From Chloroflexota bacterium (GTDB lineage Bacteria > Chloroflexota > Limnocylindria > Limnocylindrales > CSP1-4), in contig JACDAV010000258.1 in NCBI GenBank assembly GCA_013695255.1, positions 1 to 34,155 on the forward strand: a DNA stretch of 34,155 bases, in the 5' to 3' direction. Shown here piece after piece: positions 1 to 29,533 of the stretch. Position 1 is the first letter of the stretch, and every line of letters starts with the position of its first letter. The notes below the pieces were generated by a model. That model saw only the letters and a list, made by a program, of their open reading frames with translations, made no database searches and had not been told where the DNA came from. A program made the translations under genes and the position numbers.

Positions 1-518
1 CCACCGCTCACGACGAGCTTCACGGCTCGCGCGCCGGCCGACACCTGCCGCGCGACGAGGGCACGCGCCTCGCGCGCGTCGCGGACCTCGCCGCCGAACA
101 TCCCGAGATGGCCGCCGACGCGGGTGATCGACGCTCCCGCATGGACGATGTCCGGTCCGGGGGCCTCGCCCCTGGCGATCGTGGCGGCGGCCTCGGCGAT
201 GGAGGCGAGCGGCGCCCCGAGATCCCGCACGGTCGTGATCCCCGCCCAGATCGCCACCTGGGCGTTCGCGAGGGCCACGCGCAGCCGTCCCTCGTGGTCG
301 AGCGCCCGGTACGAACCGACCGGATCGCTGCCGGCGTCGAAGACCAGGTGGACGTGCGCGTCGACGAGGCCGGGCGCGAGATACCGTGGCTCGCCGGTTG
401 CCGGAGCCTCGACGATCGAGGCGATCCGGTCGCCGCGGATCACGACGGTGCGTGGCTCGGATACCCGGCCCGCGACGACGTCGACGATGCGGACCCCGGG
501 GATGCTCAGGCTCGCCAT
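1..518 (-). CDS. Metal-dependent amidohydrolase (COG1228-like), N-terminal 172 aa only; the 3' end runs off the left edge of the window
   Basis: My own reverse-strand translation from ATG (complement of 516-518) gives MASLSIPGVRIVDVVAGR...APGLVDAHVHLVFDAG...ITTVRDLG...VKLVVSGG. The D-x-H-x-H metal motif after a short N-terminal beta segment is the amidohydrolase signature. It is absent from the ORF track because it is open at the edge. Confidence 0.75.
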   Translation of the reverse strand, partial: MASLSIPGVRIVDVVAGRVSEPRTVVIRGDRIASIVEAPATGEPRYLAPGLVDAHVHLVFDAGSDPVGSYRALDHEGRLRVALANAQVAIWAGITTVRDLGAPLASIAEAAATIARGEAPGPDIVHAGASITRVGGHLGMFGGEVRDAREARALVARQVSAGARAVKLVVSG

Positions 519-556
519 CGATCGCCCGGCTCGGTCATCCCACGGTTGCCGCCGGC

Positions 557-585
557 TTGACTCACCCCCAACCAGACCATAGATT
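557..585 (+). promoter_or_regulatory. Candidate housekeeping-type promoter for the 667-7831 operon: -35 TTGACT (557-562), 17-nt spacer, -10 TAGATT (580-585)
   Basis: Hexamers and spacing were read directly. They lie in the 148-bp divergent spacer, 82 bp upstream of the ATG at 667. There is no experimental TSS. Confidence 0.4.
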
Positions 586-597
586 GTCGACAATCTA
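580..597. promoter_or_regulatory. Operator candidate, copy 1: 18-bp perfect palindrome TAGATTGTCGACAATCTA overlapping the -10 box
   Basis: The sequence equals its reverse complement. The ATTGTCGACAAT core recurs at 5944-5957 and 29480-29491, always in spacers. Confidence 0.6.
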
Positions 598-666: not shown

Positions 667-1701
667 ATGACCGATCCGCTGCTCGAGCGGCTGGATCCAC
701 GGGCCTTCGGCGAGATCGCCCGTCACGTCCTCGACGCGCCGACGTTCGAATGGATCCGCTCCGGCTCCGGCTCGGAGTTCGGGGGCGACAACGAGGCCGC
801 CTTCGCGCGACGCCGGCTGCGGCCGGCCGTCCTGGTGGACGTGTCCAGTGTGCGCACGGCGACGACGCTGCTCGGCGCGTCCGTGTCCGCGCCGGTGGCG
901 GTCGGGCCGATGGGCCTGCAGCGGGCGGTCCACCCGGACGGCGAGCTGGCGATGGCGGCCGGCGCGGCGAGGGCCGGCAGCCTGTTCGTCGTCGCGGTCA
1001 ACGCCACGACGAGCATCGAGGAGATCGCGGCAGCGGAGCCCGGGCTGCCGCTCTGGTTCCAGCTCTACAACTGGGACGATCGCGACGCCCTGGCCGGGGT
1101 CATCGGGCGGGCCGAGGCCGCCGGATGCCGGGCAATCGTGCCACTCGTGAACACGCCGCTCGGCGTCAACCACACCTCGCCCAGGATCGGCTTCCGCCTG
1201 CCCGCAGGCGCGCGGTTCGCCCACTTCGAGACCTCGCCCGGGCTAATCGCGTCGAACACGTGGGAGTACCTGGCCTGGCTGCGCTCGGTCACCTCGCTGC
1301 CGATCGTGCCGAAGGGGATCATGACCGCGGCCGATGCGGCCCGGGCGGTGGACGCCGGGGCCGCGGGAATCATCGTCTCGAACCATGGCGGGCGGCAGCT
1401 GGCGCGGTCCGTCTCGACCCTCGATGCGCTCGCGGATGTCGTGCACGGCGCCGGTGGCGTGGAGGTCTACCTCGACGGCGGCGTGCGCAGCGGCGGGGAC
1501 GTGCTGGTCGCCCTGGCCCTCGGCGCTCGCGCGGTCCTCATCGGTCGTCCCGTCCTCTGGGGGCTGGCGCTGGGCGGGGCGGCCGGCGTGGCCCGGGTCC
1601 TCGACACGATCCGCCAGGAACTGGCGGAGGACGCCGGGATGTGCGGGATCGTCGACGTCGCCGCCGTGCCCCGCGACCTCGTCGTCGACGCAACCGGCTG
1701 A
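667..1701 (+). CDS. FMN-dependent alpha-hydroxy acid dehydrogenase/oxidase (glycolate oxidase / L-lactate dehydrogenase LldD family)
   Basis: 344-aa ORF with ATG start. Family hallmarks are WFQLY, IVSNHGGRQL, and YLDGGVRSGGDVLVALALGA in the TIM-barrel FMN/phosphate-binding region. Confidence 0.9.
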   Translation: MTDPLLERLDPRAFGEIARHVLDAPTFEWIRSGSGSEFGGDNEAAFARRRLRPAVLVDVSSVRTATTLLGASVSAPVAVGPMGLQRAVHPDGELAMAAGAARAGSLFVVAVNATTSIEEIAAAEPGLPLWFQLYNWDDRDALAGVIGRAEAAGCRAIVPLVNTPLGVNHTSPRIGFRLPAGARFAHFETSPGLIASNTWEYLAWLRSVTSLPIVPKGIMTAADAARAVDAGAAGIIVSNHGGRQLARSVSTLDALADVVHGAGGVEVYLDGGVRSGGDVLVALALGARAVLIGRPVLWGLALGGAAGVARVLDTIRQELAEDAGMCGIVDVAAVPRDLVVDATG

Positions 1702-1711
1702 GGGCACTCGC

Positions 1712-2941
1712 ATGCGGGTCACCGGGGTGCGGTCCCTGCTCGTCACGGCGCCCTGGACGGGAGACCCGTTCTGGGTTCCGAGCGAGCGCTTCGAGCGGAC
1801 GGCCGCGCTCATCGTCGTCGAGACCGACGAGGGGATCAGCGGCGTCGGGGAAACGATCATGGGCTACTTCTGCGCCGAGGTCGTCAGCCCGCTGATCGAC
1901 TACTACGGCGGCCTGATCAGGGAGCTGCGCCTCGACCCCCGCCAGCCCGAGGCCGCCTTCCGCGAGCTCCACCAGCGCTCGCTCTGGTGGGCCCGCGTGG
2001 GGCTCGGGTTGTCCGTGCTCTCGGGTCTGGAGATGGCCCTCTGGGACATCGCCGGCAAGGCGGCCGGCCGGCCGGTCCACGAGCTGCTCGGCGGCCCCGC
2101 CCACGACCGGCTGCCCCTGTACGCCTCCGGCGGCACGGGGGCGTGGCCGGTTGAGCGAGCCGTCGAGCAGGCGCGCCGCTACACCTCGCTCGGCTTTCGC
2201 GGGCTCAAGATCGGAACCGGCTTCGACGGTCGGCCAGGCGGCTACACCACGGCGCCCGGCGCGCCACCATACGGGACCTGGTACGCGGGCAGCACCGCCG
2301 GACGCGTGGCCGACGAGCGCGCCAAGTTCGGCGCGCTGCGCGAGGCGCTGGGGCCGGACATCGAGCTGGCCACCGACTGCCACGCGGTGCAGGTCCGCGA
2401 GCCGTGGTCCCGCTCGACCGCGCTCGGGCTGGCCCGCGCGCTCGAGCCCTTCGACCTCCTGTTCATGGAGGAGCCACTCCGGTACGACGACCCGGAGGGC
2501 TATGCCGAGCTGCGTCGGGCGACCCGGGTGCCGATCGCCGGCGGCGAGTGCCTGACCGGCGTGGACGAGTTCCGACGCTTCCTCGACCTCGACGCCCTCG
2601 ACTACGTCCAGCCCGATGCGACCCACGTCGGCGGTGTCGGGCCGGCCCGCGATGTCGCCCGGATGGCCGAGAGCCGGCACGTCGGTCTCGTCGTCCACAC
2701 GGGGGCCGCCATCGGCCCCGGGTTCATGGCCAACCTCCACGTCGCCTTCGCCAGCCCGAACGCCCGGTTCGTCGAGTACGCGCTCGCTCCCGACAACGTG
2801 CGCTCCGAGCTGCTGACCGAGCCGGTCCGGCTCGCCGACGGGTTCATCGAGCGCCCTTCCGCACCCGGGCTGGGCATCACGCTGGACCCCGACTTCGCGG
2901 ATCGGTATCCCTACCGGGCCGGCGTGGTCGAGTACGCGTGA
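1712..2941 (+). CDS. Enolase-superfamily enzyme, mandelate racemase/muconate lactonizing family (probable acid-sugar dehydratase), paralog 1
   Basis: Internal ATG at 1712 of ORF 1334..2941 (MRVTGVRSLL...), 10 bp after the upstream stop. It has the capping-domain motif GVGET and ALWDIAGK. Barrel metal ligands appear intact (ATDCH, FMEEP, IAGGE), followed by YVQPD and VVHTG (Asp/His pair). Confidence 0.88.
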   Translation: MRVTGVRSLLVTAPWTGDPFWVPSERFERTAALIVVETDEGISGVGETIMGYFCAEVVSPLIDYYGGLIRELRLDPRQPEAAFRELHQRSLWWARVGLGLSVLSGLEMALWDIAGKAAGRPVHELLGGPAHDRLPLYASGGTGAWPVERAVEQARRYTSLGFRGLKIGTGFDGRPGGYTTAPGAPPYGTWYAGSTAGRVADERAKFGALREALGPDIELATDCHAVQVREPWSRSTALGLARALEPFDLLFMEEPLRYDDPEGYAELRRATRVPIAGGECLTGVDEFRRFLDLDALDYVQPDATHVGGVGPARDVARMAESRHVGLVVHTGAAIGPGFMANLHVAFASPNARFVEYALAPDNVRSELLTEPVRLADGFIERPSAPGLGITLDPDFADRYPYRAGVVEYA

Positions 2942-3963
2942 GCGGCGCGCCGGATCCCGCGGCCGGGGACGTGCGTATCGGCATCGCCTTCCCGTTCACG
3001 GAGGCCGAGATCGACGCGCTCCGGGCGCTGTCGCCGCGGCTTCGGCTGCGCGCGTCGAGGGAGACGGATCAGGCTGCGATCGACGAGATCGCCACCGAGG
3101 ACCTCGATGGGCTCATCGCGCAGGCTCTGCCGAGCGACCGGCAGCGCACGCCGAGCCTGCGCTGGCTGCAGGTGATGTCCGCCGGCATCGATTCGCTGTC
3201 CGGGCCGGCATGGCCGCGCGGAGTCACGCTGACCAACGCCCGTGGCGCCTACGCCGGCCGCATCGGCCAGTACACGATCGCGGCGATCCTCGGCATTGCC
3301 GAGCGCCACGACGCACGCCGGGAGCAGCAGTCCACGGGATCGTGGCCGGACGACCCGGAGCGTCTCGTGGGCCGCCCGCTGCGGGGCCAGACACTGGTCA
3401 TCGTCGGATATGGCGGGATCGGGCGCGAGATTGCGCGACTGGCCACCGCTCATGGCATGCGGGTGCTGGCCGTCAAGTCGGATCCGGCGACCCGGATCGA
3501 CGGCGGCTTCCGGATGCCCGGCACCGGCGACCCCGAGGGCAGCCTCCCGGAGCGGATCGTTGGCCTGGACGAGCTGGCTGCCGTCGCCCGGGAGGCCGAC
3601 TACCTGTCGATCACGCTGCCGATCACGGAGCGGAGCCGCGGCGCCGTCAGTCGCGACGTCCTGGCCGCGCTGCCGGCCCACGCCTGGATCGTGAACACCG
3701 GCCGCGGGCCGGTCGTGGACGAGCCGGCGCTCGATGCGGCGCTCGCCGCGGGGCAGCTGGGCGGCGCCGTGCTCGACGTCTTCGGGGAGGAGCCGCTCCC
3801 GGCCTCCAGCCCGCTGTGGCGGCGATCGAACGTCGTCATCACGCCTCACGTGTCCGGGGCGGGCGCCCACGAGGAGCTGCTCGCCCTGGCCAGGGAGAAC
3901 GTCCGCCGGTTCGTGGCCGGCGAGCCCCTGCTCAACCAGGTGGACGTGGAGCGGGGCTACTGA
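2938..3963 (+). CDS. D-isomer-specific 2-hydroxyacid dehydrogenase, NAD(P)-binding
   Basis: GTG at 2938 overlaps the upstream TGA (GTGA); an alternative GTG lies at 2971. Motifs are IVGYGGIGREIA (GxGxxG), NTGRG, DVFGEEP and ITPHVSG, the family Arg/Glu/His set. Confidence 0.85.
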   Translation: MSGAPDPAAGDVRIGIAFPFTEAEIDALRALSPRLRLRASRETDQAAIDEIATEDLDGLIAQALPSDRQRTPSLRWLQVMSAGIDSLSGPAWPRGVTLTNARGAYAGRIGQYTIAAILGIAERHDARREQQSTGSWPDDPERLVGRPLRGQTLVIVGYGGIGREIARLATAHGMRVLAVKSDPATRIDGGFRMPGTGDPEGSLPERIVGLDELAAVAREADYLSITLPITERSRGAVSRDVLAALPAHAWIVNTGRGPVVDEPALDAALAAGQLGGAVLDVFGEEPLPASSPLWRRSNVVITPHVSGAGAHEELLALARENVRRFVAGEPLLNQVDVERGY

Positions 3964-3964
3964 C

Positions 3965-5137
3965 GTGAGATCGGCGACCGATCAGGGCCGGGTCGTGGAG
4001 CGTGTCGAATGCTTCGCGGTCAGCCACACGCTCGACCCCCGGACCGGGCCGTCGATCGCCCTGTCCGGCACCCACGCCTACGTCCTGGTCAAGATCACCG
4101 ACGCCGATGGCCGCTCGGGCTGGGGTGAGACCTACCTCGTGCCGGGCATCCCCTCGATCATCGAGACGGTGGCTCCGGCGATCCTCGGGCGCTCCGCGAC
4201 GGGAACGCGCGGGCTCGGCGAGGACGTTCGCCGGGCGGCCGAGCACGCCTACGCGGCGTCGGCCCTGACGATCGCCCTGGAGGACCTCCGGGCGCGCCAG
4301 CTCGGGGTGTCCGTGGCCGCCTCGTTCGGTGGTCCGGTTCGCGAGCGGGTCCGCCTCTACGCGGCGTTCGGCGGATACGTGGAGGGCATCGACCCGGCGG
4401 ACAGCTGGCCGCGGGACGTGGAGCGCGCCCTCGAGGCCGGCTTCACGGCCATGAAGTTCCGCGTCGGTCGTTACCCGGTGGCTCACGAGGCGGCGCTGCT
4501 CGAGCGGATCCGCGCCGACCTCCCGGCCGGCGTCGCGCTGATGGCCGACGGCAATGCCGGGTACACGCTGCCGCGGGCGATCGAGATGGGCCGGATCCTC
4601 GATTCGCTCGCCTTCGTGTGGTTCGAGGAGCCGATGCACCAGCGCGAGGGGTATGCCGGCTACGAGCACCTGGCCGCGGCGCTCGACATCGCCCTCGCCG
4701 GCGGCGAGATCCTCCAGACGCGCAGCGCCGCCATCGAGCTGCTGGGGCGCCGGGCGGTCGACATCGTCCAGCCGGAGCCGGTCATCTGCGGTGGGGTCGC
4801 CGAGGCGCTCTGGATCGCGGACCTCGCGGCCGTGCATTCCATCGCGGCCATGCCCCACACCTCCAACAACGCCCTGGGGATCGCGGCGGGGCTCCAGGTC
4901 CTGGCCTGTCTGCCGGACCCGACGCGCTCGCCGGCCTCGGACGAGCTGTTCCTCGAGTACGGCGTGGACGACAATCCCCACCGGACCGGGCTCCTCGCGG
5001 CAGCCCTTCGGTTCGCCGGCGGCTGGGCGACCGTCCCGGAGGGGCCGGGCCTCGGGGTGGAGGTCGACGAGGCCTACCTGCGGCATCACGCGCTCGAGAC
5101 GCGCGTCATCGACGCGGCCGGCGCTCGGGCCGTTTGA
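3965..5137 (+). CDS. Enolase-superfamily enzyme, mandelate racemase-like, paralog 2
   Basis: GTG at 3965, 1 bp after the upstream stop. Motifs are SGWGET, MKFRVG, LMADGNAGY, WFEEP, LAGGE, DIVQPE and MPHTS. The metal ligands look intact. Its subfamily differs from paralogs 1 and 4. Confidence 0.88.
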   Translation: MRSATDQGRVVERVECFAVSHTLDPRTGPSIALSGTHAYVLVKITDADGRSGWGETYLVPGIPSIIETVAPAILGRSATGTRGLGEDVRRAAEHAYAASALTIALEDLRARQLGVSVAASFGGPVRERVRLYAAFGGYVEGIDPADSWPRDVERALEAGFTAMKFRVGRYPVAHEAALLERIRADLPAGVALMADGNAGYTLPRAIEMGRILDSLAFVWFEEPMHQREGYAGYEHLAAALDIALAGGEILQTRSAAIELLGRRAVDIVQPEPVICGGVAEALWIADLAAVHSIAAMPHTSNNALGIAAGLQVLACLPDPTRSPASDELFLEYGVDDNPHRTGLLAAALRFAGGWATVPEGPGLGVEVDEAYLRHHALETRVIDAAGARAV

Positions 5138-5139
5138 CC

Positions 5140-5937
5140 GTGTCCGAGGCGGCCCTGGCCGCGGCCCTGGCGGTGATCGGACGGTTGCCCGGGGCCGAGG
5201 TGCAGGCCGGGTCGGACGCGACGTGGGTTGCCGGCGGCCGGCCGCTGGAGAGCCTCAACCACGTCGTCGGGCTGGAGCTGCGGGGGACCGACGCGGCGAT
5301 CGAGGAGCGGATCGACGCCATCGACGCGGCGTTGCGGGAGCGGGGGTCGGCGCCCGCGACGTGGTGGATCGGCCCGTCCACGCGGCCAACGGACCTCGCG
5401 CGTCGGCTGCGTGCCCGTGGCTTCACCGACGCCGAGCCGGAGCACGGGATGGTCATCGACGTCGCCAGGGCTGCCGCGCCGATCGGTGCCGTGGAGCTCG
5501 TGGAGGACGAGGCCGGGCTCGACGCGTTCCTCGCGGTGATGGGCGGTGCGTACGGGTGGTCGGAGGACGCCGGAGCGGCCTGGGCGGAGCTGTACCGCAC
5601 GGCCGCCTCGGAGCGGGAGCGCCCGTGGTGGCACGTGGTCGTCCGCCACGACGGCCGACCCGCCGCGTGCGCCTCGCTCCTCACGGCGGGCGGTCACGCG
5701 TTCGTGACCAACGTCGGGACGGTCCCGGCGGCCCGTGGCGCCGGCCTCGGCACCACCGCCACGCTGGCGGTTCTGCAGATCGCGGCTCGGCTCGGTCATC
5801 GACGCGCCAGCCTCACCGCCTCGCACATGGGGCGGGGCGTGTACGCGCGGATCGGGTTCGAGGAGGACGCGCGGCTGGAGCGCTGCGTCTCGCCGGCCAA
5901 CCGGCTCGAAACGCGGCGAGCCGTCAGTCGGAGGTAA
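5140..5937 (+). CDS. GNAT-family N-acetyltransferase (two-lobed, about 265 aa)
   Basis: Start is GTG 5140 or TTG 5134, abutting or overlapping the upstream TGA (5135-5137). The C-terminal acetyl-CoA loop reads VGTVPAARGAGLGTTATLAVLQIAARLGHRRASLTASHMGRGVYARIGFEE. Confidence 0.75.
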   Translation: MSEAALAAALAVIGRLPGAEVQAGSDATWVAGGRPLESLNHVVGLELRGTDAAIEERIDAIDAALRERGSAPATWWIGPSTRPTDLARRLRARGFTDAEPEHGMVIDVARAAAPIGAVELVEDEAGLDAFLAVMGGAYGWSEDAGAAWAELYRTAASERERPWWHVVVRHDGRPAACASLLTAGGHAFVTNVGTVPAARGAGLGTTATLAVLQIAARLGHRRASLTASHMGRGVYARIGFEEDARLERCVSPANRLETRRAVSRR

Positions 5938-5943
5938 GCTCTC

Positions 5944-5957
5944 GATTGTCGACAATC
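5944..5957. promoter_or_regulatory. Operator candidate, copy 2: 14-bp perfect palindrome GATTGTCGACAATC
   Basis: It lies in the 52-bp spacer between the GNAT stop (5937) and the aldolase ATG (5990) and has the same core as 580-597. Confidence 0.5.
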
Positions 5958-5989
5958 TGCATCCCGTGAGCCCGACGGGGAGACGAGTC

Positions 5990-6793
5990 ATGGCGTCGAT
6001 CAATCCGCTTCTGGCACGCTGGCGAGCCGGCGAGCCCAGCCTCGGCGGCTGGTTGACGACGGCCGATCCCCAGATCGCGGAGTACCTCGCCAGCGGCGGG
6101 TTCGACGAGATCTGCGTCGATCAGCAGCACGGGCTCGCGGACGCATCGCTGCTGGCATCGATGTTCCGCGCCCTCGAGGTGCACGGGGTGCTGCCGACCA
6201 CCCGGGTGCCGGGCAACGACTTCGCGGCCATCGGCAAGGCGCTCGATGTCGGGGCGATGGCGATCATCGTGCCCATGGTCGGAACGCCGGAGGAGGCAGC
6301 CGCCGCGGTCGACGCGTGCCACTACCCGCCACGCGGCCACCGTTCGGTGGGGCCCCTGCGCGGCGCCTTCGTCCGAGCCTCGGACCGCCTCGACGCCCTC
6401 GACGAGGCGGCCTGCGTGGTGATGGTCGAGACGGCCGACGGGGTGCGCAATGTGGACGCGATCGCCGCCACGCCCGGGGTCGATGCGATCTACATCGGGC
6501 CGGGCGACCTGGCCCTCGGGTTGGGTCTCTCGGCGTGGTCGGAGGACTGGACGCCGGGCGAGGCAAGCGTCCACGCGGAAGCTGTGGAACGGATTCGCTC
6601 GGCCTGCCTTCGCCATGGCGTCGCGCCCGGCATCCACACGGGTGATGGCGAGACGGCGCGGCGCTACCTCGACCAGGGCTTCCTGATGGTCACGGTCGCG
6701 AACGAGCTCGGGCTGATCTCCAGCGGCGGCAGGGCGCAGCTGGCCGTCGCCCGCGGCGAGACGCCCGCCGGGGTCGCCGCACGCGCGGTGTAG
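5990..6793 (+). CDS. HpcH/HpaI-family class II (metal-dependent) 2-keto-3-deoxy-acid aldolase
   Basis: ATG at 5990 with GGGGAG 7 nt upstream. Motifs are GGWLTT, GFDEICVDQQHG, TTRVPGND, IIVPMV and VMVETADGV...GVDAIYIGPGDLALGLG (Glu/Asp metal ligands). Confidence 0.88.
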   Translation: MASINPLLARWRAGEPSLGGWLTTADPQIAEYLASGGFDEICVDQQHGLADASLLASMFRALEVHGVLPTTRVPGNDFAAIGKALDVGAMAIIVPMVGTPEEAAAAVDACHYPPRGHRSVGPLRGAFVRASDRLDALDEAACVVMVETADGVRNVDAIAATPGVDAIYIGPGDLALGLGLSAWSEDWTPGEASVHAEAVERIRSACLRHGVAPGIHTGDGETARRYLDQGFLMVTVANELGLISSGGRAQLAVARGETPAGVAARAV

Positions 6794-6814
6794 CGGAACG
6801 CTTCGGAGGGTGGC

Positions 6815-7831
6815 ATGACCGTCGGGATCGGGATGATCGGGGCCGGGCAGATGGCCCACATCCACGCCGTGGCCATCGCCGAGCAGGAGCCCGGTCGGGC
6901 CCGGCTCGTCGCCGTCACGAGCGGGTCGCGCGCGCCGGCGCTCGCCGCCGAGTTCGACGCGGAGGCGGAACCCTCCATCGAGTCACTGCTGGACCGCCCC
7001 GACATCGACGCCGTCGTGATCGCCACCCCCCATACGGCGCACCTGCCCAACGTCCTCGCCGCGGCGGGGGCGGGCAAGCACATCCTGCTCGAGAAGCCGA
7101 TGGCCCTCGATGTCGACGAGTGCCGCCTGATGATCGACGCCTGCGACGCGGCCGGCGTCCACCTGAGCCTGGCCAAGATCTCCCGCTGGCTCGATGCGGT
7201 CCGCATCGGTCACGAGCTGGTCGCCGGCGGGGTGGCGGGCGATCTCGTCGCCGTCCACGTCCACCGCCTCTTCCCCGGCTACCCGAACGCGGGCTGGCCG
7301 CTCGACCCGCGCGAGGGCGGCGCCTGGCTCGACTGGGGCAGTCACGGCTGCGACATCGTCCGCTGGTACGCCGGGCGGGAGCCGGAGCTCGTCACCGCCC
7401 GGTTCGCCTCGCGGCGGACCGACATGCCGGACCTGACCGGGATGGCGACGTTCGAGTTCCCGGGCGCGCTCCTGGCCCACCTGTTCATGTCATACGAGAT
7501 CCCCGGAGCCGCGGCCACGGAGCGCGCTCACTACATGGCCTTCGGCACGGACGCCGTCATCGACCTCCACGCCTATGGAGGGGTCGACGTGCTGCGCGGC
7601 GACAGCCGGGAACCGGTCTACCGCGATGAGCGCTTCACCGATGCGAACACGACCTGGGACGAGCACGCGCCCTACTTCCGGCGCGGGTTCGCCGCGCAGG
7701 TGCGCGATCTCGTCGAGGCCATCGAGGACCGCCGGCCGCCGACGATCGACGGACACGACGGGCTGGCCGCGGTGGCGATGGCGACCGGCGCGCTCCGCTC
7801 GTGGCGCGAGGATTCGGTCGTCCGGCTGTAG
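6815..7831 (+). CDS. Gfo/Idh/MocA-family NAD(P)-dependent oxidoreductase, paralog 1
   Basis: 338 aa. The N-terminal Rossmann motif is GIGMIGAGQMA. It also has VVIATPHTAH and the canonical LLEKPMA motif. GGAGGG lies upstream of the ATG. Confidence 0.9.
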   Translation: MTVGIGMIGAGQMAHIHAVAIAEQEPGRARLVAVTSGSRAPALAAEFDAEAEPSIESLLDRPDIDAVVIATPHTAHLPNVLAAAGAGKHILLEKPMALDVDECRLMIDACDAAGVHLSLAKISRWLDAVRIGHELVAGGVAGDLVAVHVHRLFPGYPNAGWPLDPREGGAWLDWGSHGCDIVRWYAGREPELVTARFASRRTDMPDLTGMATFEFPGALLAHLFMSYEIPGAAATERAHYMAFGTDAVIDLHAYGGVDVLRGDSREPVYRDERFTDANTTWDEHAPYFRRGFAAQVRDLVEAIEDRRPPTIDGHDGLAAVAMATGALRSWREDSVVRL

Positions 7832-7846
7832 GGCGATTCGACCTCG

Positions 7847-8974
7847 CTAGGCCGACGGCGTCCGGCGGGCCGACTGCGTGTTGTCGTCGATCCAGTCCCA
7901 GTCGAGATCGACACCCAGGCCCGCGCCGGCGGGCAGGTGCTTGTAGCCCTCGGCATCGATCGCCAGCGGCTGGCCCTTGAGACCGCGGGTGTAGATCGGG
8001 TGGAACGTCTCCGCCCAGCGACCGTTGGTCATCGACAGCGAGACATGCAGATTGGCGATGTCGAGCAGGGGTTGGGCGACGCCGTGGACCTCGAGCTCGA
8101 AGCCGAGGAGGTCGGCCATCCCGACGGCCTTGCGCAGCCCGGTGATGCCCTCCTTCATGTGGACGTCGCCCCGGGCGATGTCGAAGGCGCCCAGCCGCAT
8201 CCCCTCGGCCAGCTCATGGACCCGTGAGGTCTCACCGGCCAGGATCGGCACGTCCAGCTGCTCGGTGAGCCGCTGGAGCTGGAACAGGTTGCGGTCCGGG
8301 ATGGGCTCCTCGAACCAGGTGTACCCGAGCTCGCCGAGAACCTTCCCGGCGGCCAGGGCCTGGGTGTAGCTGTACATCCCGGCCGCGTCCTGCATGAGCG
8401 GGAAGTCGTCGCCAACTGCCTCACGGGCCGCGCGGAAGCGCGGGATGTCGCGATCGAGGCCGTCCCAGAACTGGACCTTGAAGCCGTGGTAGCCCTGCGC
8501 CTGGCGCTCTTTCGCCTCCTCGTGGACGTCCTCGGGCGACGGCTCGATGGTGCGGGCGGTCGCATAGGCGCCGACCTTCGTGCGGGCGAGACCGAGCATC
8601 GTTGCGATCGGCAGGTTGGCGACCTTGCCCCGGATGTCCCAGATCGCGACGTCGATCGAACCCGCGACCCCGTCCGAAAGGTTGTAGGCGTGACGATTGA
8701 GCCGCCGCAGCTTGTGCCACAGGAGCTCGCTCTGGAGCGGGTCCTCGCCGATGAGCTGCGGGGCATACAGGTCGTGGAGGACGTGGATCATCGCGGCCCC
8801 GTCGCGCAGGTTCGCGTTCTGCATCGTGTAGCCCACGACGCCATCGTCCGTGTGAATGGTGTCGAACGAGTACTCGTACCACGAGGTCGAGATGCCCTCC
8901 GGCAGGATGCCCTCACCCCAGGCTTCGGCGACGTCGTAGCCGATGACGCGTGATTCGATCGCGGTGATCTTCAT
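7847..8974 (-). CDS. Enolase-superfamily enzyme, mandelate racemase-like, paralog 3
   Basis: Start MKITAIESR at 8974 forms an ATGA overlap with the upstream gene's stop. Motifs are AIWDIRGK, GFKVQFW, LMQDAAGMY, WFEEP, LAGE and LEVHG. Confidence 0.88.
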   Translation of the reverse strand: MKITAIESRVIGYDVAEAWGEGILPEGISTSWYEYSFDTIHTDDGVVGYTMQNANLRDGAAMIHVLHDLYAPQLIGEDPLQSELLWHKLRRLNRHAYNLSDGVAGSIDVAIWDIRGKVANLPIATMLGLARTKVGAYATARTIEPSPEDVHEEAKERQAQGYHGFKVQFWDGLDRDIPRFRAAREAVGDDFPLMQDAAGMYSYTQALAAGKVLGELGYTWFEEPIPDRNLFQLQRLTEQLDVPILAGETSRVHELAEGMRLGAFDIARGDVHMKEGITGLRKAVGMADLLGFELEVHGVAQPLLDIANLHVSLSMTNGRWAETFHPIYTRGLKGQPLAIDAEGYKHLPAGAGLGVDLDWDWIDDNTQSARRTPSA

Positions 8975-10026
8975 GGCAGCCTCTGCGCCCTGGGGGCCGC
9001 TCCCTCGACGAGGACCCGGCAACCGCTGGCCGCGGACCGCTGGACGGCCTCCAGGAACGCCATGTAGCCGAGGCCGGTCGCGAAGTCGGTCAGCGTGACC
9101 GAGCGTTCGCCGCGGATGGCGGCCACGAAGTCGATCTCGGCGGTCCAGTCCGCGCGGTCCTCGTCGCGGATGGCCACCGGTTCGGGGGTCCCGCCGCGAC
9201 CGGGCAGGCGGTCGATCCGGCGGGCCGCAAGGTCCACGACCAGGCTGGCGTCCGTGCCGTGGATGGCCACCCGATCGGCGGTGTGGGCGTTGGTGCGCGC
9301 CGACATCTCGATCACCGCAGTCACGTCGTCCGGGTACTCGGCGAGCGCCAGCACGTGATCGGGAACGTCTGCCTCGATCGGCCCGTCCGGACCGGGCCGC
9401 AGCGCGGCATCGAGTCGTGTGAGCGCGGACACCGCTTCCGGCTGGCCGAGCCAGCGCGCCATCGCCTCGGCCAGGATGCCGAGGGACATCACGTTCTCGC
9501 CACTCGTGGCCCGCCGCCAGCGCCAGAAGTCGGCGGGATCTGCCGGCCCGCTGGCGTCCCAGGTGACCTGGACGTGACGCACCCGCCCGATCGCGCCGGC
9601 GTGCACGAGGCGGGCGATCGTGGCATCCGCCCAGAGGGAGAACGAGGCCGGGACGACCATGGCCACGCGATCGGGGTGCGCCCGCGCGGCACGCACCATC
9701 GCCCGCGCCTCCTCGGCCGTGGCCGCCATGCGAGCCTCGGTGAGAACGTGCTTGCCGGCGTCGAGGGCGGCGATCGACACCGGCGCATGCAGGACGGGCC
9801 AGGCACCCACCAGCACGGCGTCGACGCCGGGATCGCCGACCAGGCCCCGCCAGTGCGGGAAGGCCCGCTCCAGCCCGAGCTCGTCGGCAGCCCGGCGCGA
9901 GGATTCCGGTGAGCGGTTGGCGACCCCGACGAGCTCGACCCCCTCGATCGCCCGGAAGCGCGGCACGTGCTCCGCGCGCACGATCCGCCCGGCCCCCACG
10001 ATGCCGATCCTGATCGGCTCTGTCAT
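8971..10026 (-). CDS. Gfo/Idh/MocA-family oxidoreductase, paralog 2 (atypical: EKP motif reads TEARM)
   Basis: Start MTEPIRIGIVGAGRIV at 10026, preceded on the coding strand by GAGGAGGG. The Rossmann motif is present. The position of the usual EKP Lys reads HVLTEARMA. Confidence 0.85.
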   Translation of the reverse strand: MTEPIRIGIVGAGRIVRAEHVPRFRAIEGVELVGVANRSPESSRRAADELGLERAFPHWRGLVGDPGVDAVLVGAWPVLHAPVSIAALDAGKHVLTEARMAATAEEARAMVRAARAHPDRVAMVVPASFSLWADATIARLVHAGAIGRVRHVQVTWDASGPADPADFWRWRRATSGENVMSLGILAEAMARWLGQPEAVSALTRLDAALRPGPDGPIEADVPDHVLALAEYPDDVTAVIEMSARTNAHTADRVAIHGTDASLVVDLAARRIDRLPGRGGTPEPVAIRDEDRADWTAEIDFVAAIRGERSVTLTDFATGLGYMAFLEAVQRSAASGCRVLVEGAAPRAQRLP

Positions 10027-10033
10027 GGCTGAC

Positions 10034-10873
10034 TCACCCTCCTCGATTGCTGGCCGCATCGTCCCAGCCGAGGCGGCGGGACAGGTCGTCGGCGGCGGCG
10101 CGGACGATGGCGCCGGCGTTCGCCTCCTTGTCCTCGCTGGTGCGATTGTCCGGCCAGGTCGCGATCAGGTCGCCGATCACGCGGCCGCGCGCGTCGCGGA
10201 TCGGCGCGGCGACTCCCACGGCTCCCTCGAACCGTTCCCCGTGGCTGACCACGTAGCCGCGTCGCCTCGCGGCCCGGAGCTCGCTCCGCAGGCGCGCCTT
10301 GGACCGCGGCGAACGGCCGGGGACCGGATCGGGGAGCCGGTCCAGGATGGCGGCCTGCTCGGCGGGGGGGAGGAAGGCGAGGATGCCCTTGCCGGATGAG
10401 CCCAGGTGCAGGTCGCTCCATTCGCGCAGCGACTCCCACAGGTAACGGATGGGGTGGCTGGTCTCCACGGCATCGACGGCGGAGAACTTGCGGCGGACCG
10501 GATCGTACAGCGCCAGGACGACCGTTTCGCCGATCGCCGCGGACGCGTGCTCGAGGATCGGCCGGCCCACGCGCCGGACATCGAGGTGCTCCGCCACGAG
10601 CAGGCCGATCCGGGCGAGGTCCGCACCAACCCGGAAGCGACCCGGATCGTCGGCCGGCGCGAGCAGGCCCAGGGCGGCCATGTCGTGGAGGATTCGGTGC
10701 GCGGCGCTGCGCGGGATGCCGGTCGATCGCGTCAGCTCGCGGACGCCCCATTCGCCCTCCTCGGCGAACGCCTCGAGGACCCGCACCCAGCGCGCCATCG
10801 GCCGCCTGGGCGGGCCTGCCATCGCGGGCGCGGTGGCTGCGCTGCTGGCGATTGACCCGGCTGGGCTGCGCAT
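10034..10873 (-). CDS. IclR-family transcriptional regulator
   Basis: The winged HTH reads VRVLEAFAEEGEWGVRELTRSTGIPRSAAHRILHDM. The C-terminal effector domain reads GAVGVAAPIRDARGRVIGDLIATWP. I chose the start at ATG 10873 because a TATCGT -10-like box lies 9 nt upstream (near-leaderless). ATGs at 10822 or 10798 are possible. Confidence 0.85.
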   Translation of the reverse strand: MRSPAGSIASSAATAPAMAGPPRRPMARWVRVLEAFAEEGEWGVRELTRSTGIPRSAAHRILHDMAALGLLAPADDPGRFRVGADLARIGLLVAEHLDVRRVGRPILEHASAAIGETVVLALYDPVRRKFSAVDAVETSHPIRYLWESLREWSDLHLGSSGKGILAFLPPAEQAAILDRLPDPVPGRSPRSKARLRSELRAARRRGYVVSHGERFEGAVGVAAPIRDARGRVIGDLIATWPDNRTSEDKEANAGAIVRAAADDLSRRLGWDDAASNRGG

Positions 10874-15049: not shown

Positions 15050-16381
15050 GTGGCCCAACCGAGCGGCGACGTCATCCTCGGAGCTGGATCCCGCCTCGAC
15101 CGGGTGGGCTGGAGCGCGCTCTCGTACGGGCCGTTCCGGTTCTTCCTGGCCGCAATGCTTGCCTCGACGAGCGCCAACTTCGTGTACTACGCGGCGCTCG
15201 GCTGGTACGTCCTCGAGGTCACCGGGTCCGCGGCCGCGGTCGGCTTCGCGTTCACGGCGTCCGGGCTGCCGATCCTGCTCCTGACGGCGCATGCCGGCGT
15301 CCTGACCGATCGGCTCGGGGCACGGGTCATGTTGCTCGGATCGCTCGTCGGCATGGCCCTCGCGACCGCCGCCCAGGCCGTCCTCGCCATGGGTGGCGCC
15401 CCGCCCTACGCGCTCGTGGTGGCGCTGGCCCTGGGCCTCGGGATCGCCATGACCGTCGGGGCGCCGGCGTCGGTGGCCATCGTGACCGAGCTCGTCGCAC
15501 CGCCGGCCGTCTCGAGCGCGACCGCGCTCAACTTCCTGCACATGAACGTGTCGCGGATCATCGGCGGGTTGGTCGGCGGGCTCATGCTCGCCACGACGAC
15601 GCCGGCCGTCGCGTTCGGTGCGGCCGCCGCCCTGTTCGTGCTGGCGATCGTGATCATGGCGCGGATGCGGACGCCGGGCGCGCGGCCCACCGCCGAACGG
15701 CCGCGGGCGGCACTCGTGGGCCCACTCCTGGAGGCGTTCCGGTACGCCATCCGCCACCCGACCCTGGGCGTGCTCATCGTCCTGTCCATCGCCCCCGGCG
15801 CGATCGGGCTCAGCTACATCTTCATGCTTCCCGTCGCGGCCGAGGAACTGGGGATCGGGGCCGCCGGGCTCGGCATCCTGATGGCCGCCAGCGGCGTCGG
15901 CGGGTTGATCGCCGGGCTGTCGCTCGAATCCATCCAGCGCCGGGTGGGCCACGGTCGAGCGCTGTTCGGCGGGCTCGTCGGTGCGGCGATCGGGCTGACG
16001 TCGTTCGGCCTCGCGCCCAGCGTGCCGCTCGCCATCGGTGCGTTGCTCATCGTCGGGGCGAGCTTCCTGACCTTCGCGGCGGCCACCGTGACGCTGACCC
16101 AGGCCCTCGCGCCGGCCCGGCTGCGTGGCCGCCTGGTGAGCCTGTTCGCGACGCTGTACTGGGGAATGATGCCGGTCGGCGCACTCCTCGTCGGGCTCGT
16201 CGCAGAGGCGACGACCGGGCGGACCGCGATTGCCCTGTGCGGTGCCGGGCTGGCCATTGCCGGCGCGACCGCGTTCTTCGCCCGGCCGCAGATCGCGACC
16301 CTGAGCGTGGGTCGCGACGGGCTGACCCTGAGTGGCGACTTGCGCGGCTCGGGCGCGGAGCCGCCGTCGCTCAGCGCCTGA
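15050..16381 (+). CDS. MFS transporter (12-TM, EntS/MFS_3-like)
   Basis: 443 aa. Hydrophobic segments alternate throughout. The loop motif GVLTDRLGARV follows TM2. This is the only transporter in the window. Confidence 0.85.
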   Translation: MAQPSGDVILGAGSRLDRVGWSALSYGPFRFFLAAMLASTSANFVYYAALGWYVLEVTGSAAAVGFAFTASGLPILLLTAHAGVLTDRLGARVMLLGSLVGMALATAAQAVLAMGGAPPYALVVALALGLGIAMTVGAPASVAIVTELVAPPAVSSATALNFLHMNVSRIIGGLVGGLMLATTTPAVAFGAAAALFVLAIVIMARMRTPGARPTAERPRAALVGPLLEAFRYAIRHPTLGVLIVLSIAPGAIGLSYIFMLPVAAEELGIGAAGLGILMAASGVGGLIAGLSLESIQRRVGHGRALFGGLVGAAIGLTSFGLAPSVPLAIGALLIVGASFLTFAAATVTLTQALAPARLRGRLVSLFATLYWGMMPVGALLVGLVAEATTGRTAIALCGAGLAIAGATAFFARPQIATLSVGRDGLTLSGDLRGSGAEPPSLSA

Positions 16382-17603
16382 GCCCGGGGTACCCGAGGTC
16401 CGTGAGCGGCTTGCCGGGCACCGGGTTGAACTCTCCGCTGCCGGGAACGAACGGGCAGCGCTCCCGGAGCTCGATCGGCAGCCGGATGCCGAGCCCGGGC
16501 GTCTCGGGCGGCAGCACGCGGCCACCGCGCATGACGAACGAATCGCCGACGATCTCGGCCTGCAGCGGGCCGAAGGCGGGCGGGATCTCACAGATCGCGG
16601 TGTTCGACGCGGCGAAGGCGGCGTGAATGTTCTGCATCAGCGCCCCGCCGGCGCCCCACGAGTGGGTTGCGATCCGCCGACCCCGCGACTCGAACAGCGA
16701 CGCGATCCGCAGGAACTCGCCGAGGCCGCCGCAGAACGCCGCGTCCGGCTGGGCGATGTCGAAGGCGTCCGCCTCCGCGAAGACGCGCCACTCGGGAACG
16801 CCGGTCAGCGTCTCACCGCCCGCGATGGGCACGGACGTCGCACCGCGCAGCTCGCCGTAGCCCCACGGGTTGGTGTAGGGCAGCGGCTCCTCGAAGAGGA
16901 ACAGGTCGAACGGTTCGACCGCCCTGACCACGGCCAGCGCCGTCGGTACCTCCCAGCCCGGCACGGCCAGGTTGTCCTGGTGGCCGTCGAGGAGGACCGC
17001 GATGTCGGGACCGACATGCTGACGGACGAACGCGAGCTTCTCGGCCTCGAAGGCCGCCGCCGCGGCGGGTTCGGCGAAGGCGTGCTCCACGCCCTCGGGT
17101 GTGGAGGCGCCGGTGCCGATCTTGAACGCGCGGAACCCGAGTCCGAGGTAGAAGTCGATCTTGTCGGCGAGGCGCGGCGGCGGATAGACCGTGCCTCCGC
17201 CGGTGGCGTAGCCAAGGATGCTGTCGTGCCGTCGACCGCCGAGGAGCTCGTGCACGGGGACGCCCAGCTCGCGGCCGCGGAGGTCCCACAGGGCGGCCTC
17301 CAGCGCCGTGATGACGGCCAGCCCGAGACCGGCCCGGGCCCAGTAGCGCCCGGTGTGGAAGAGCCGGGCGGCCAGGGTCGGCACGTCGTCGACGGTCTGC
17401 TCGAGCAGGATCGGGCGGTAGAACTCGACGATCGGCGGGATCGCCTCGGGCACGAAGTAGCCGGCGTACGTCTCGCCGAGACCCGTGAGCTCGGTGTTGG
17501 TGAGGATCTCCACGAACGCGGCGCTCCGGCGCGTCCGTCCGAAGTGTGGATCGTTCGTGCTCGGCCCGGTCAGCAGGACGGTCCGGACGTCCGTGATTCG
17601 CAT
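16371..17603 (-). CDS. Enolase-superfamily enzyme, mandelate racemase-like, paralog 4 (same subfamily as 1712-2941)
   Basis: Start MRITDVRTVLL at 17603. Motifs are GLGETYAGYF, ALWDLRGR, FKIGTG, LLDGHQD, LFEEP, IAGGE, IAQPD and ATHSW. It is collinear with paralog 1 and of almost identical length (410 vs 409 aa). Confidence 0.88.
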   Translation of the reverse strand: MRITDVRTVLLTGPSTNDPHFGRTRRSAAFVEILTNTELTGLGETYAGYFVPEAIPPIVEFYRPILLEQTVDDVPTLAARLFHTGRYWARAGLGLAVITALEAALWDLRGRELGVPVHELLGGRRHDSILGYATGGGTVYPPPRLADKIDFYLGLGFRAFKIGTGASTPEGVEHAFAEPAAAAAFEAEKLAFVRQHVGPDIAVLLDGHQDNLAVPGWEVPTALAVVRAVEPFDLFLFEEPLPYTNPWGYGELRGATSVPIAGGETLTGVPEWRVFAEADAFDIAQPDAAFCGGLGEFLRIASLFESRGRRIATHSWGAGGALMQNIHAAFAASNTAICEIPPAFGPLQAEIVGDSFVMRGGRVLPPETPGLGIRLPIELRERCPFVPGSGEFNPVPGKPLTDLGYPGLRR

Positions 17604-17635
17604 GCGGCTCCGCTCCGTCCCAATCCGCCGCGGAC

Positions 17636-17680
17636 TACACTGCCACTTGCCAGGAGGCGACTTCGTACGCTGGGAGTGTA
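17636..17680. promoter_or_regulatory. Pair of facing TACACT -10-like boxes (plus strand 17636-17641; minus strand complement of 17675-17680) in the enolase/SDR divergent spacer
   Basis: Read directly. TACACT also occurs as a -10 candidate at 15036-15041 and 20548-20553, all in divergent spacers. Confidence 0.3.
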
Positions 17681-17703
17681 CAGAGGAGGAGACCGCCAGG
17701 AGG

Positions 17704-18462
17704 ATGGACCAGGCCACGACCGGCGACGGCCGGGTCGCCATCGTCACCGGCGCCGCGGGGACGATCGGCACCGCGATGTGCGAGCGCTTCGTGCGCGACG
17801 GGATTCGGGTCGTGGTCGCCGACGTGACCATCGAGCCCGCCCGGGCCCTGGCCCATCGCCTCGATCCGTCCGGCGGACGAGCCCTCGCGGTGGCCGTCGA
17901 CGTCACGGACTACGCGAGGGTGGAATCGATGGTCGACGGCGCCCTGGCATGGGCCGGCAGGATCGACATCCTGGTCAACAACGCCGGCATCTCGGAGGGC
18001 CACGTCCCGAGCTGGGAGATGCCGCTGGATGCCTGGCGGCGGACCATCGACGTCGATCTGACCGGCGTCTTCCACGGTTGCCGCGCGGTTCTGCCCTCGA
18101 TGCTCGAACGCGGCTGGGGCCGGATCGTCAACATCTCGTCGATCGCCGGCAAGGAGGGCAAGAACAATCCGGCGGCCTATGCCGCGGCAAAGGCGGGCGT
18201 CATCGGCCTGACGAAGTCCGTGGCCTTCGAGGTCGCGGCGCGGGGGATCCTGGTGAATGCGATCACGCCCGGCTCGATCTGGACGCCGGCCTGGGCGGCG
18301 CTCGGCGACGAGCGGCGAGAAGAGGTCCGGAGCCGGCACCCGATCGGGCGCTTCGGTCAGGCCGAGGAGGTCGCGGCGCTGGTGGCCTGGCTGTCGTCCG
18401 AGGAGTGCTCGTTTTCCACGGGCGCCGTCTTCGACATCTCGGGTGGGCGCGCCGGTCACTGA
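17704..18462 (+). CDS. Classical short-chain dehydrogenase/reductase (SDR, FabG-like)
   Basis: Motifs are TGAAGTIG (TGxxxGxG), NNAG, Ser...YAAAK (YxxxK) and PGSIWT. 252 aa counted from ATG 17704. Confidence 0.9.
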   Translation: MDQATTGDGRVAIVTGAAGTIGTAMCERFVRDGIRVVVADVTIEPARALAHRLDPSGGRALAVAVDVTDYARVESMVDGALAWAGRIDILVNNAGISEGHVPSWEMPLDAWRRTIDVDLTGVFHGCRAVLPSMLERGWGRIVNISSIAGKEGKNNPAAYAAAKAGVIGLTKSVAFEVAARGILVNAITPGSIWTPAWAALGDERREEVRSRHPIGRFGQAEEVAALVAWLSSEECSFSTGAVFDISGGRAGH

Positions 18463-29411: not shown

Positions 29412-29479
29412 CGGGCTCGGGACCTCGGTTCGGGGTGGAGGATCGGCGGCTCGGCTCCCACCTTGCCGGCCGGCCGTGA

Positions 29480-29491
29480 ATTGTCGACAAT
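29480..29491. promoter_or_regulatory. Operator candidate, copy 3: 12-bp perfect palindrome ATTGTCGACAAT, abutting a minus-strand TAGGAT -10-like box (complement of 29490-29495)
   Basis: It lies in the 122-bp divergent spacer between the BNR gene (ATG at 29411, minus) and the Mo-enzyme gene (ATG 29534, plus). Confidence 0.5.
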
Positions 29492-29533
29492 CCTACGGCA
29501 CCGGCAACCGCCCGGGCGCCAAGAGGAGGAGCG

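Follow-up and report, generated by a model that had tools for sequence, protein, structure and literature searches.

Several described systems resemble the locus considered here. In the non-phosphorylative routes for L-fucose, L-rhamnose and D-galactonate, a sugar 1-dehydrogenase, a lactonase and an enolase-superfamily dehydratase (FucD, RhamD or GalD) are followed either by an HpcH-type aldolase (YfaU/LRA4) or by a short-chain dehydrogenase/reductase (SDR) and an FAH hydrolase, and a carboxylate-sensing GntR regulator of the FCD type is typical of such acid-sugar routes. The mandelate pathway of Pseudomonas putida combines the racemase MdlA with the FMN-dependent (S)-mandelate dehydrogenase MdlB and the thiamine diphosphate (ThDP) decarboxylase MdlC, and a Geobacillus route combines a GNAT enzyme, an N-succinylamino-acid racemase (NSAR) and a desuccinylase. 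We have analysed a cluster of seven genes (g1–g7) at positions 667–7831 of a 34,155-nucleotide stretch of Chloroflexota DNA, called the window below, which encodes two enolase-superfamily members (ENO1 and ENO2), two 2-hydroxyacid dehydrogenases, a GNAT acyltransferase, an HpcH-type aldolase and a Gfo/Idh/MocA oxidoreductase. The window has a G+C content of 73% and takes up contig C105 completely; the contig belongs to a metagenome-assembled genome (2.35 Mb, 424 contigs, ca 80% complete). With confidence only slightly above even, we read the cluster as a GntR-repressed non-phosphorylative acid-sugar catabolic regulon of uncultured soil and rock Chloroflexota.

The cluster resembles the non-phosphorylative routes in its Gfo-type dehydrogenase, its GalD-type enolase member and its HpcH aldolase, with an SDR, an FAH hydrolase and a second HpcH gene elsewhere in the window. 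It differs from them in the extra FMN-dependent and D-specific dehydrogenases, the second enolase member and the GNAT, and in its division into at least two operator-controlled units. None of the seven proteins reaches an NCBIfam equivalog cut-off, the best solved structures for the enolase members are ca 30–35% identical, and the homologs of ENO1, ENO2 and the GNAT have generic or automatic public names. The NCBIfam and PDB sequence searches gave no characterised ortholog above cut-off and none nearer than the remote family level, and no characterised pathway matching the cluster was found in the literature. The original prediction, made from the DNA sequence, could not match this gene combination to a described pathway, and that judgement stands. 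The cluster follows the general logic already known from non-phosphorylative sugar-acid clusters, to which it adds the conserved ENO2–GNAT module, as yet unassigned, and the pairing of the FMN-dependent dehydrogenase (FMN_dh, g1) with an enolase member.

The genes were called from a GC3 frame plot together with start-codon inspection and Pfam matches, and the motifs expected of active enzymes are present in all seven proteins. Pfam bears out every family assigned in the original prediction between 667 and 7831. The prediction counted eight genes, whereas seven are found, and its own list also totals seven. One candidate for an eighth, the plus-strand frame at 1–582 without a Pfam match, was rejected as a wrong-frame reading of the amidohydrolase gene on the minus strand. 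The junctions from g1 to g7 are, in order, +10, −4, +1, −4, +52 and +21 nt. The D-specific dehydrogenase gene (D2HADH, g3) has a GTG start and overlaps the stop of g2 by 4 nt, and the GNAT gene g5 has a TTG start that overlaps the ENO2 stop (TTGA) and gives an N-terminus conserved across 39 homologs. The ATG of g6 is preceded by a Shine–Dalgarno-like GGGGAGA, with an alternative GTG at 5966.

The grouping of these genes exceeds chance: six or more independent assemblies from Chloroflexota share the same order. All close homologs come from uncultured members of this phylum, from metagenome-assembled genomes that carry the labels Thermomicrobiales, Chloroflexia, Anaerolinea or Candidatus Limnocylindria. 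The order FMN_dh–ENO1–(D2HADH)–ENO2–GNAT, with HpcH and Gfo nearby, is seen at the related loci L002, L003, L005, L006 and L008 and in fragmented form at L009, and shorter pieces with parts of the block occur at L001, L007, L010 and L012. In the relatives, a gene of the MFS family on the opposite strand sits between the GNAT and aldolase genes.

A shared operator ties the cluster together further. The perfect palindrome GATTGTCGACAATC lies upstream of g1, and a second perfect copy lies in the 52-nt spacer between g5 and g6, 33 nt before the aldolase ATG; a third is found far to the right in the window. The 12-nt operator core thus has 3 matches in the window against 0.32 expected, and 6 further perfect 12-mers are spread over 4 contigs in the rest of the genome, where one more copy has a mismatch. 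On contig C17, an operator copy directly precedes a FadR/FCD-type GntR gene, which is followed by a paralog of ENO2 (42% identical). Among the relatives, a GntR/FCD gene is found directly upstream of FMN_dh at L005, L006 and L008. The operator 12-mer precedes the FMN_dh gene at L002, L003, L005, L006 and L008 and the HpcH gene at L002, L005, L006, L007, L008 and L010, and the Gfo gene has its own copy, apart from these two. The palindrome is a probable binding site of the FCD-type GntR repressor, which in this genome is encoded on C17.

It is important to point out that these data do not confirm the single operon that had been proposed. Since an operator precedes g6 as well as g1, and the relatives keep HpcH and Gfo in separate operator-bearing units, the cluster is probably one GntR-type regulon with at least two transcription units (g1–g5 and g6–g7). 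The shared operator and the conserved gene set are good evidence of a common function, but they do not demonstrate that all seven genes are co-transcribed. A look for terminator-like sites gave none. Four sequencing runs of undeclared type contain the sequence, and they are DNA rather than RNA, as the depth is flat on both strands and over the spacers.

Members of the mandelate-racemase-like group of the enolase superfamily combine a capping domain with a TIM barrel, carry three carboxylate metal ligands on strands 3–5 and have a strand-7 His paired with a strand-6 acid. ENO1 belongs to this group, with the ligands D222, E253 and E279, the acid D302 and the His H329. Its residue set (D222-C-H224, E253, E279, D302 and H329) is GalD/ManD-like, and the combination of D-x-H with a His–Asp dyad is what we take to be the D-galactonate dehydratase pattern, with His as the general acid. 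The NCBIfam models scoring highest are galactonate dehydratase (179 bits, cut-off 311) and ManD (167 bits, cut-off 550), and the best PDB matches are 4e4u, 5olc and ManD-family entries. Judged by its residues, ENO1 is a probable acid-sugar dehydratase. It is only 28% identical to ENO2, as expected for the two non-orthologous enzymes that the prediction had described.

The genome shares with the mandelate pathway the adjacency of FMN_dh and an enolase member, which occurs twice, and a ThDP enzyme is encoded 3 kb away. ENO1, however, is GalD/ManD-like with K-x-G rather than K-x-K, so that it is without the S-specific Lys base, and the nearby ThDP protein is, unlike MdlC, an E1 of the AceE-like type and is controlled by another regulator (IclR). 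A mandelate-racemase-like role for ENO1 was rejected in view of its GalD-type residues and the missing strand-2 Lys base. The 60 best solved relatives of ENO1 do not include mandelate racemase.

In a non-phosphorylative acid-sugar regulon of this kind, where we infer every chemical step and substrate, the Gfo/Idh/MocA enzyme would oxidise the sugar at C1, and a metallohydrolase, for example the divergently encoded amidohydrolase, would open the resulting lactone. ENO1, with its GalD-type His/Asp dyad and D-x-H acid, would then convert the aldonate to a 2-keto-3-deoxy acid, which the HpcH aldolase would cleave, giving an aldehyde and pyruvate. For the pair of 2-hydroxyacid dehydrogenases there are two possible roles: oxidation of small end products of the L- and D-2-hydroxyacid type (lactate, glycolate, glycerate), or re-setting of C2 of the aldonate via the 2-keto form. 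The GNAT would N-acetylate the amine of the substrate or product of ENO2, and a form of the substrate with an amino group would be the province of these two enzymes.

The product of g7 has three Pfam domains and the E-K-P motif (LLEKPMA) of the Gfo/Idh/MocA family, and by this likeness it is a probable sugar 1-dehydrogenase; its best NCBIfam match is IolG, with 131 bits against a cut-off of 355. For g6, the Pfam HpcH_HpaI match has 100 bits and the best PDB matches are the hydroxyketoacid aldolases 7o5i and 6r62, HpaI and GarL, with NCBIfam scores of 147 bits for HpaI (cut-off 369), 130 for GarL (cut-off 407) and 91 for YfaU (cut-off 441). The g1 protein matches positions 1–348 of the 350 in the Pfam FMN_dh profile (323 bits) and has the catalytic His and Arg of the family in IVSNHGGRQ. 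Its best solved structures are the L-lactate oxidase 7f20 and glycolate/hydroxyacid oxidases, and it scores far under the LldD, L-lactate oxidase and MftD equivalog cut-offs. The g3 protein is likewise a regular member of its family (2-Hacid_dh_C, 155 bits), with GYGGIG and with Arg, Glu and His in NTGRG, FGEEP and TPHVSG; the best PDB matches are 3hg7 and 5mh5, the GhrB model gives 98 bits, and every NCBIfam equivalog is below its cut-off.

A number of observations weigh against the acid-sugar reading. There is no lactonase, kinase or aldehyde dehydrogenase gene inside 667–7831. Each step is assigned by analogy alone, because no curated family cut-off is reached, and to our knowledge FMN-dependent hydroxyacid dehydrogenases are part of no described acid-sugar route. 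The seven genes are also not an obligatory set, since D2HADH is absent from the otherwise identical block at L002 and HpcH is absent at the locus in L001 and L003. In addition, ENO2 homologs of 55–61% identity are without a GNAT and are found in contexts with Peptidase_S9, M20 and hydantoinase genes. As these contexts are peptide- or amino-acid-like, the ENO2 family may not act on sugars at all.

ENO2 is also a member of the mandelate-racemase-like group, with K164-x-R166, the metal ligands D195, E221 and E248, and then E271 and H298. Its best PDB relatives are the A. tumefaciens galactarolactone cycloisomerase AtGCI (4ggb/4hpn, 33% identity), DauB (5olc, 29%), which is a 3,6-anhydro-D-galactonate cycloisomerase from Zobellia, and B. 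subtilis YitF. The fold, the D/E/E ligands and the strand-7 His are shared with AtGCI and DauB. In AtGCI, the ligands are D194, E220 and E246, the predicted general base is Lys166, which is the second Lys of K-x-K, and the acid is His296 (PMC5698469). While ENO2 keeps the ligands and His296, it has Arg166 for Lys166, Ala198 for His197 and Glu271 for Asp269. These Arg, Ala and Glu changes are family-wide, with K-x-R kept throughout an alignment of six orthologs and five paralogs, and of these enzymes ENO2 alone has a GNAT partner. The JGI name of the family, 'D-galactarolactone cycloisomerase', is automatic and unsupported: ENO2 has Arg where galactarolactone cycloisomerase (Gci) has the defining Lys166, and the identity is only 33%.

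Enzymes of the NSAR/o-succinylbenzoate synthase (OSBS) type, from the muconate-lactonizing enzyme (MLE) subgroup, have two opposed Lys bases, in a strand-2 K-x-K and on strand 6. ENO2 has K-x-R on strand 2 and Glu271 on strand 6 (Asp in the paralogs), and its scores against the OSBS/NSAR models are at most 37 bits. Since the strand-2 Lys base is missing and a single obvious base, the His, is left, the residues of ENO2 point to a one-base β-elimination, that is, it is probably an eliminase or dehydratase and not a racemase.

The GNAT gene directly follows every ENO2 ortholog of at least 65% identity. The translational coupling of the GNAT to the second enolase member, suggested earlier from the TTGA overlap, is well founded, as the same 4-nt overlap is kept in all relatives with called genes. 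A close ortholog of the GNAT is present in only one of ca 25 sampled genomes of the same family, and at 29 loci of other Chloroflexota genomes with GNAT homologs of 30–43% identity, no enolase neighbour was found within 1.5 kb. The idea that ENO2 and the GNAT always duplicate as a unit was dropped, since the C17 paralog of ENO2 in this genome has no GNAT and the 55–61% ENO2 homologs and the distant GNATs are unpaired as well.

GNAT proteins are recognised by their fold and by motif A (R/Q-x-x-G-x-G/A), which binds the pyrophosphate of CoA. In g5, motif A is R201-G-A-G204-L-G in the C-terminal half, with R201 and G204 invariant in 40 of 40 aligned sequences. The AlphaFold model (pLDDT 91.4) has two GNAT-like halves, and Foldseek matches it, at E-values of 1e-13 to 1e-9, to the tandem GNATs 4ius, 3frm, VipF and MshD and to the glucosamine N-acetyltransferase 5kf1. 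It resembles WecD and uncharacterised tandem GNATs besides MshD and the glucosamine enzyme. The modelled fold fits a small-molecule amine as substrate, without naming which. The wider regulon indirectly supports the earlier hint at a substrate with an amino group: a PIG-L deacetylase, a class-V aminotransferase and D-aminoacylase-like enzymes paired with pyridoxal phosphate (PLP) enzymes suggest the same.

It is thus conceivable, although doubtful, that ENO2 and the tandem GNAT constitute a new two-enzyme module in the mandelate-racemase-like branch, in which an enzyme of the K-x-R type, with His as its one base, would convert, for example by β-elimination, an amino-substituted acid sugar whose amine is dealt with by N-acetylation, and that this module and the recurring FMN_dh–enolase pair would together form a new oxidative amino-sugar-acid route in soil Chloroflexota. 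If the reading holds, one target for the discovery of enzyme functions would be the K-x-R enolase subfamily, which is tied to an acetyltransferase and is without the catalytic Lys found in the enzyme it is named after, and the recurring pairing of FMN_dh with an acid-sugar-type dehydratase would be a second one. The hosts are abundant uncultured Chloroflexota of soil and rock with poorly known carbon sources, and the conserved operator with its GntR repressor offers a simple route to the inducing substrate. A pathway variant would be added and an over-annotation corrected, with general principles unchanged.

A tentative alternative, which we regard as rather improbable, is that ENO2, the GNAT and the D-aminoacylase-like amidohydrolases act on an α-amino acid-like substrate, with 2-amino-2-deoxy-aldonates or β-hydroxy-D-amino acids as candidates. 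Here, the GNAT would N-acylate the amine, the enolase member would take the α-proton, leading to epimerisation or β-elimination, and a deacylase or PLP lyase would end the sequence. A pathway composed of a GNAT, an enolase-superfamily enzyme and a hydrolase has a precedent (bioRxiv 10.1101/2022.03.03.481873). The cluster is similar to the Geobacillus route in that the enolase is coupled to a GNAT, invariably so among the orthologs of ENO2, and N-acyl-amino-acid-type hydrolases are part of the regulon. The fold of g5 is common to small-molecule amine acetylases (glucosamine N-acetyltransferase, MshD, WecD). Fitting enzymes occur in the regulon or window, namely pairs of an Amidohydro_3 protein with a BhcC-like one, a GntG/threonine-aldolase-type enzyme, the PIG-L deacetylase and the class-V aminotransferase, and one ENO2 homolog (57% identity) lies between Peptidase_S9 and M20 peptidase genes. 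However, ENO2 falls outside the MLE/NSAR subgroup, and with Glu271/His298 and the Arg it has a His and an acid instead of the two opposed Lys bases that racemisation would need. Acid-sugar enzymes are its nearest relatives and its neighbours are of acid-sugar type, no M20 desuccinylase is encoded in the window, and the ENO2 paralog of this genome works without a GNAT.

Another option, based on the C2 inversion through a 2-keto acid that the original prediction suggested, is that the FMN-dependent L-specific and the NAD-dependent D-specific dehydrogenases together invert C2 of an aldonate and thereby feed a dehydratase that accepts only the other configuration. The D-2-hydroxyacid dehydrogenase family does include 2-ketoaldonate reductases such as GhrB/TkrA, in line with the GhrB score of g3, the motifs of both dehydrogenases are intact in a tightly packed unit with both enolase members, and the FMN_dh–enolase adjacency is found a second time in the genome, on contig C264. 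The proposal is nevertheless weakened, because D2HADH is missing both from the L002 block and from the C264 pair. Moreover, the best matches of g1, lactate and glycolate oxidases, are equally consistent with oxidation of C2/C3 end products, and we know of no FMN_dh member acting on aldonates. We consider the inversion unlikely.

Finally, a uronate or aldarate route, with the Gfo protein as uronate dehydrogenase, ENO2 as a Gci-like lactone-opening eliminase, the HpcH protein as an aldolase for 2-keto-3-deoxy-aldarates in the manner of GarL and D2HADH as the reductase of tartronate semialdehyde or hydroxypyruvate, is very improbable, since, although AtGCI is the best solved relative of ENO2, the JGI family name agrees and the HpcH protein has some likeness to GarL, the three active-site replacements at 33% identity and the missed GarL cut-off speak against it, KdgD and a uronate dehydrogenase of the Udh (SDR) type are both absent, and the GNAT and FMN_dh are left unexplained.

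Table 1. Genes and sites of the cluster and of other parts of the window.
Feature	Position	Strand	Description	Match or motif
Promoter-like sequence	557-585	+	−10 overlapped by the GATTGTCGACAATC palindrome	TTGACT-17-TAGATT
Operator, first copy	582-595		perfect palindrome upstream of g1	GATTGTCGACAATC
g1	667-1701	+	FMN-dependent α-hydroxy-acid (L-2-hydroxyacid) oxidase/dehydrogenase, 344 aa	Pfam FMN_dh
g2 (ENO1)	1712-2941	+	enolase superfamily, 409 aa	Pfam MR_MLE_N+C
g3 (D2HADH)	2938-3963	+	NAD-dependent D-isomer-specific 2-hydroxyacid dehydrogenase, 341 aa	Pfam 2-Hacid_dh_C
g4 (ENO2)	3965-5137	+	enolase superfamily, 390 aa	Pfam MR_MLE_N+C
g5	5134-5937	+	tandem-fold GNAT acyl-CoA N-acyltransferase, 267 aa	Pfam Acetyltransf_1/6/7
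Operator, second copy	5944-5957		perfect palindrome in g5-g6 spacer	GATTGTCGACAATC
g6	5990-6793	+	HpcH/HpaI-type class II (metal-dependent) pyruvate aldolase, 267 aa	Pfam HpcH_HpaI
g7	6815-7831	+	Gfo/Idh/MocA NAD(P)-dependent oxidoreductase, 338 aa	Pfam GFO_IDH_MocA + C-terminal domains
Amidohydro_1 metallohydrolase, N-terminal part	3-593	-	cut by contig end	HxH motif DAHVH; Pfam PF01979, E 3.9e-8
ENO3 and Gfo2	7847-10059	-	ENO3 start 8974, Gfo2 stop 8971	ATGA overlap
ENO4 open reading frame	16371-17906	-	real start most likely near 17600	MRITDVRTVLL
Amidohydro_3/PLP pair	20583-23349		D-aminoacylase/D-glutamate-deacylase type with BhcC/D-threonine-aldolase-like enzyme	
BNR-propeller gene	28314-29411	-	one side of third operator	
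Operator, third copy	29479-29492		perfect palindrome in divergent spacer	GATTGTCGACAATC
Molybdenum hydroxylase large subunit	29534-31846		other side of third operator	

With regard to the surroundings of the cluster (Table 1), the Amidohydro_1 gene diverges from g1 across the operator. The fragment has a weak NCBIfam likeness to Xaa-Pro dipeptidase-type amidohydrolases, and its family makes it a candidate for the lactonase or deacylase of the regulon. The third operator lies between divergent genes for a BNR-propeller protein and the large subunit of a molybdenum hydroxylase, and it would bring a xanthine-dehydrogenase-family enzyme into the same regulon.

A unit headed by an IclR gene converges on g7 from downstream and includes genes for a third enolase member (ENO3) and another Gfo protein (Gfo2), which overlap by ATGA; in the relatives, an ENO3–Gfo2–IclR / E1–PNPOx block comes after the conserved core. 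At L005, L008 and L010, a gene of ca 284 aa without a Pfam match lies between ENO3 and the second Gfo gene, and it is absent in the window. Elsewhere in the window are an SDR gene beside a fourth enolase member (ENO4), the second HpcH aldolase gene, more Gfo/Idh/MocA genes and the FAH hydrolase gene, whose product is most similar to 2,4-didehydro-3-deoxy-L-rhamnonate hydrolase. The ENO4 open reading frame includes a spurious N-terminal extension of ca 100 aa that is rich in Arg, Ser and Thr, and with its more likely start there is no overlap with the SDR gene.

In the rest of the genome, the genes adjacent to operator copies encode Gfo/Idh/MocA proteins, the PIG-L deacetylase, an aldehyde dehydrogenase, a CUT1-type sugar ABC transporter and BNR-propeller proteins. 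The window and the operator-bearing contigs further encode a DHDPS/NanA-like lyase, the class-V aminotransferase, the GntG/threonine-aldolase-type enzyme and, in all, three BNR-propeller proteins, which are cytoplasmic. The Amidohydro_3/PLP pair is found twice, in the window and on contig C8 (1873-4202), and one of the pairs is directly behind an operator copy. By their families, these pairs are a candidate module for N-acyl-D-(β-hydroxy)amino acids or amino-sugar acids. The gene mix of the regulon suggests sugars and sugar acids as substrates, some of them nitrogen-bearing since N-deacylases and PLP enzymes are present.

The second FMN_dh–enolase pair, on C264 (734-2862, minus strand), has its genes 2 nt apart and no D2HADH, and its enolase member has K-x-R (FKIRMD). 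C264 and C8 are apparently neighbouring contigs, because one amidohydrolase gene is split over their ends with an identical 41-residue overlap. A protein of 491 aa (P0344) has FMN_dh and MR_MLE domains fused in one public gene call; the fusion may be real, or adjacent g1–g2 homologs may have been joined by a frameshift in the call. At L041, the locus of the ENO2 homolog with 57% identity, the ENO2-family gene overlaps a PNPOx-like gene in place of the GNAT, in a peptide- or N-acyl-amino-acid-like context of Peptidase_S9, GntR, M20 peptidase, PALP and two amidohydrolase genes. At least 13 studies have metagenomes with near-identical sequence (runs X1–X20), sampled from soil, rock, sediment or 'terrestrial' sources, and one metagenome contig from X2 extends ca 5.6 kb past the left end of the window, with another operator copy ca 3.5 kb out.

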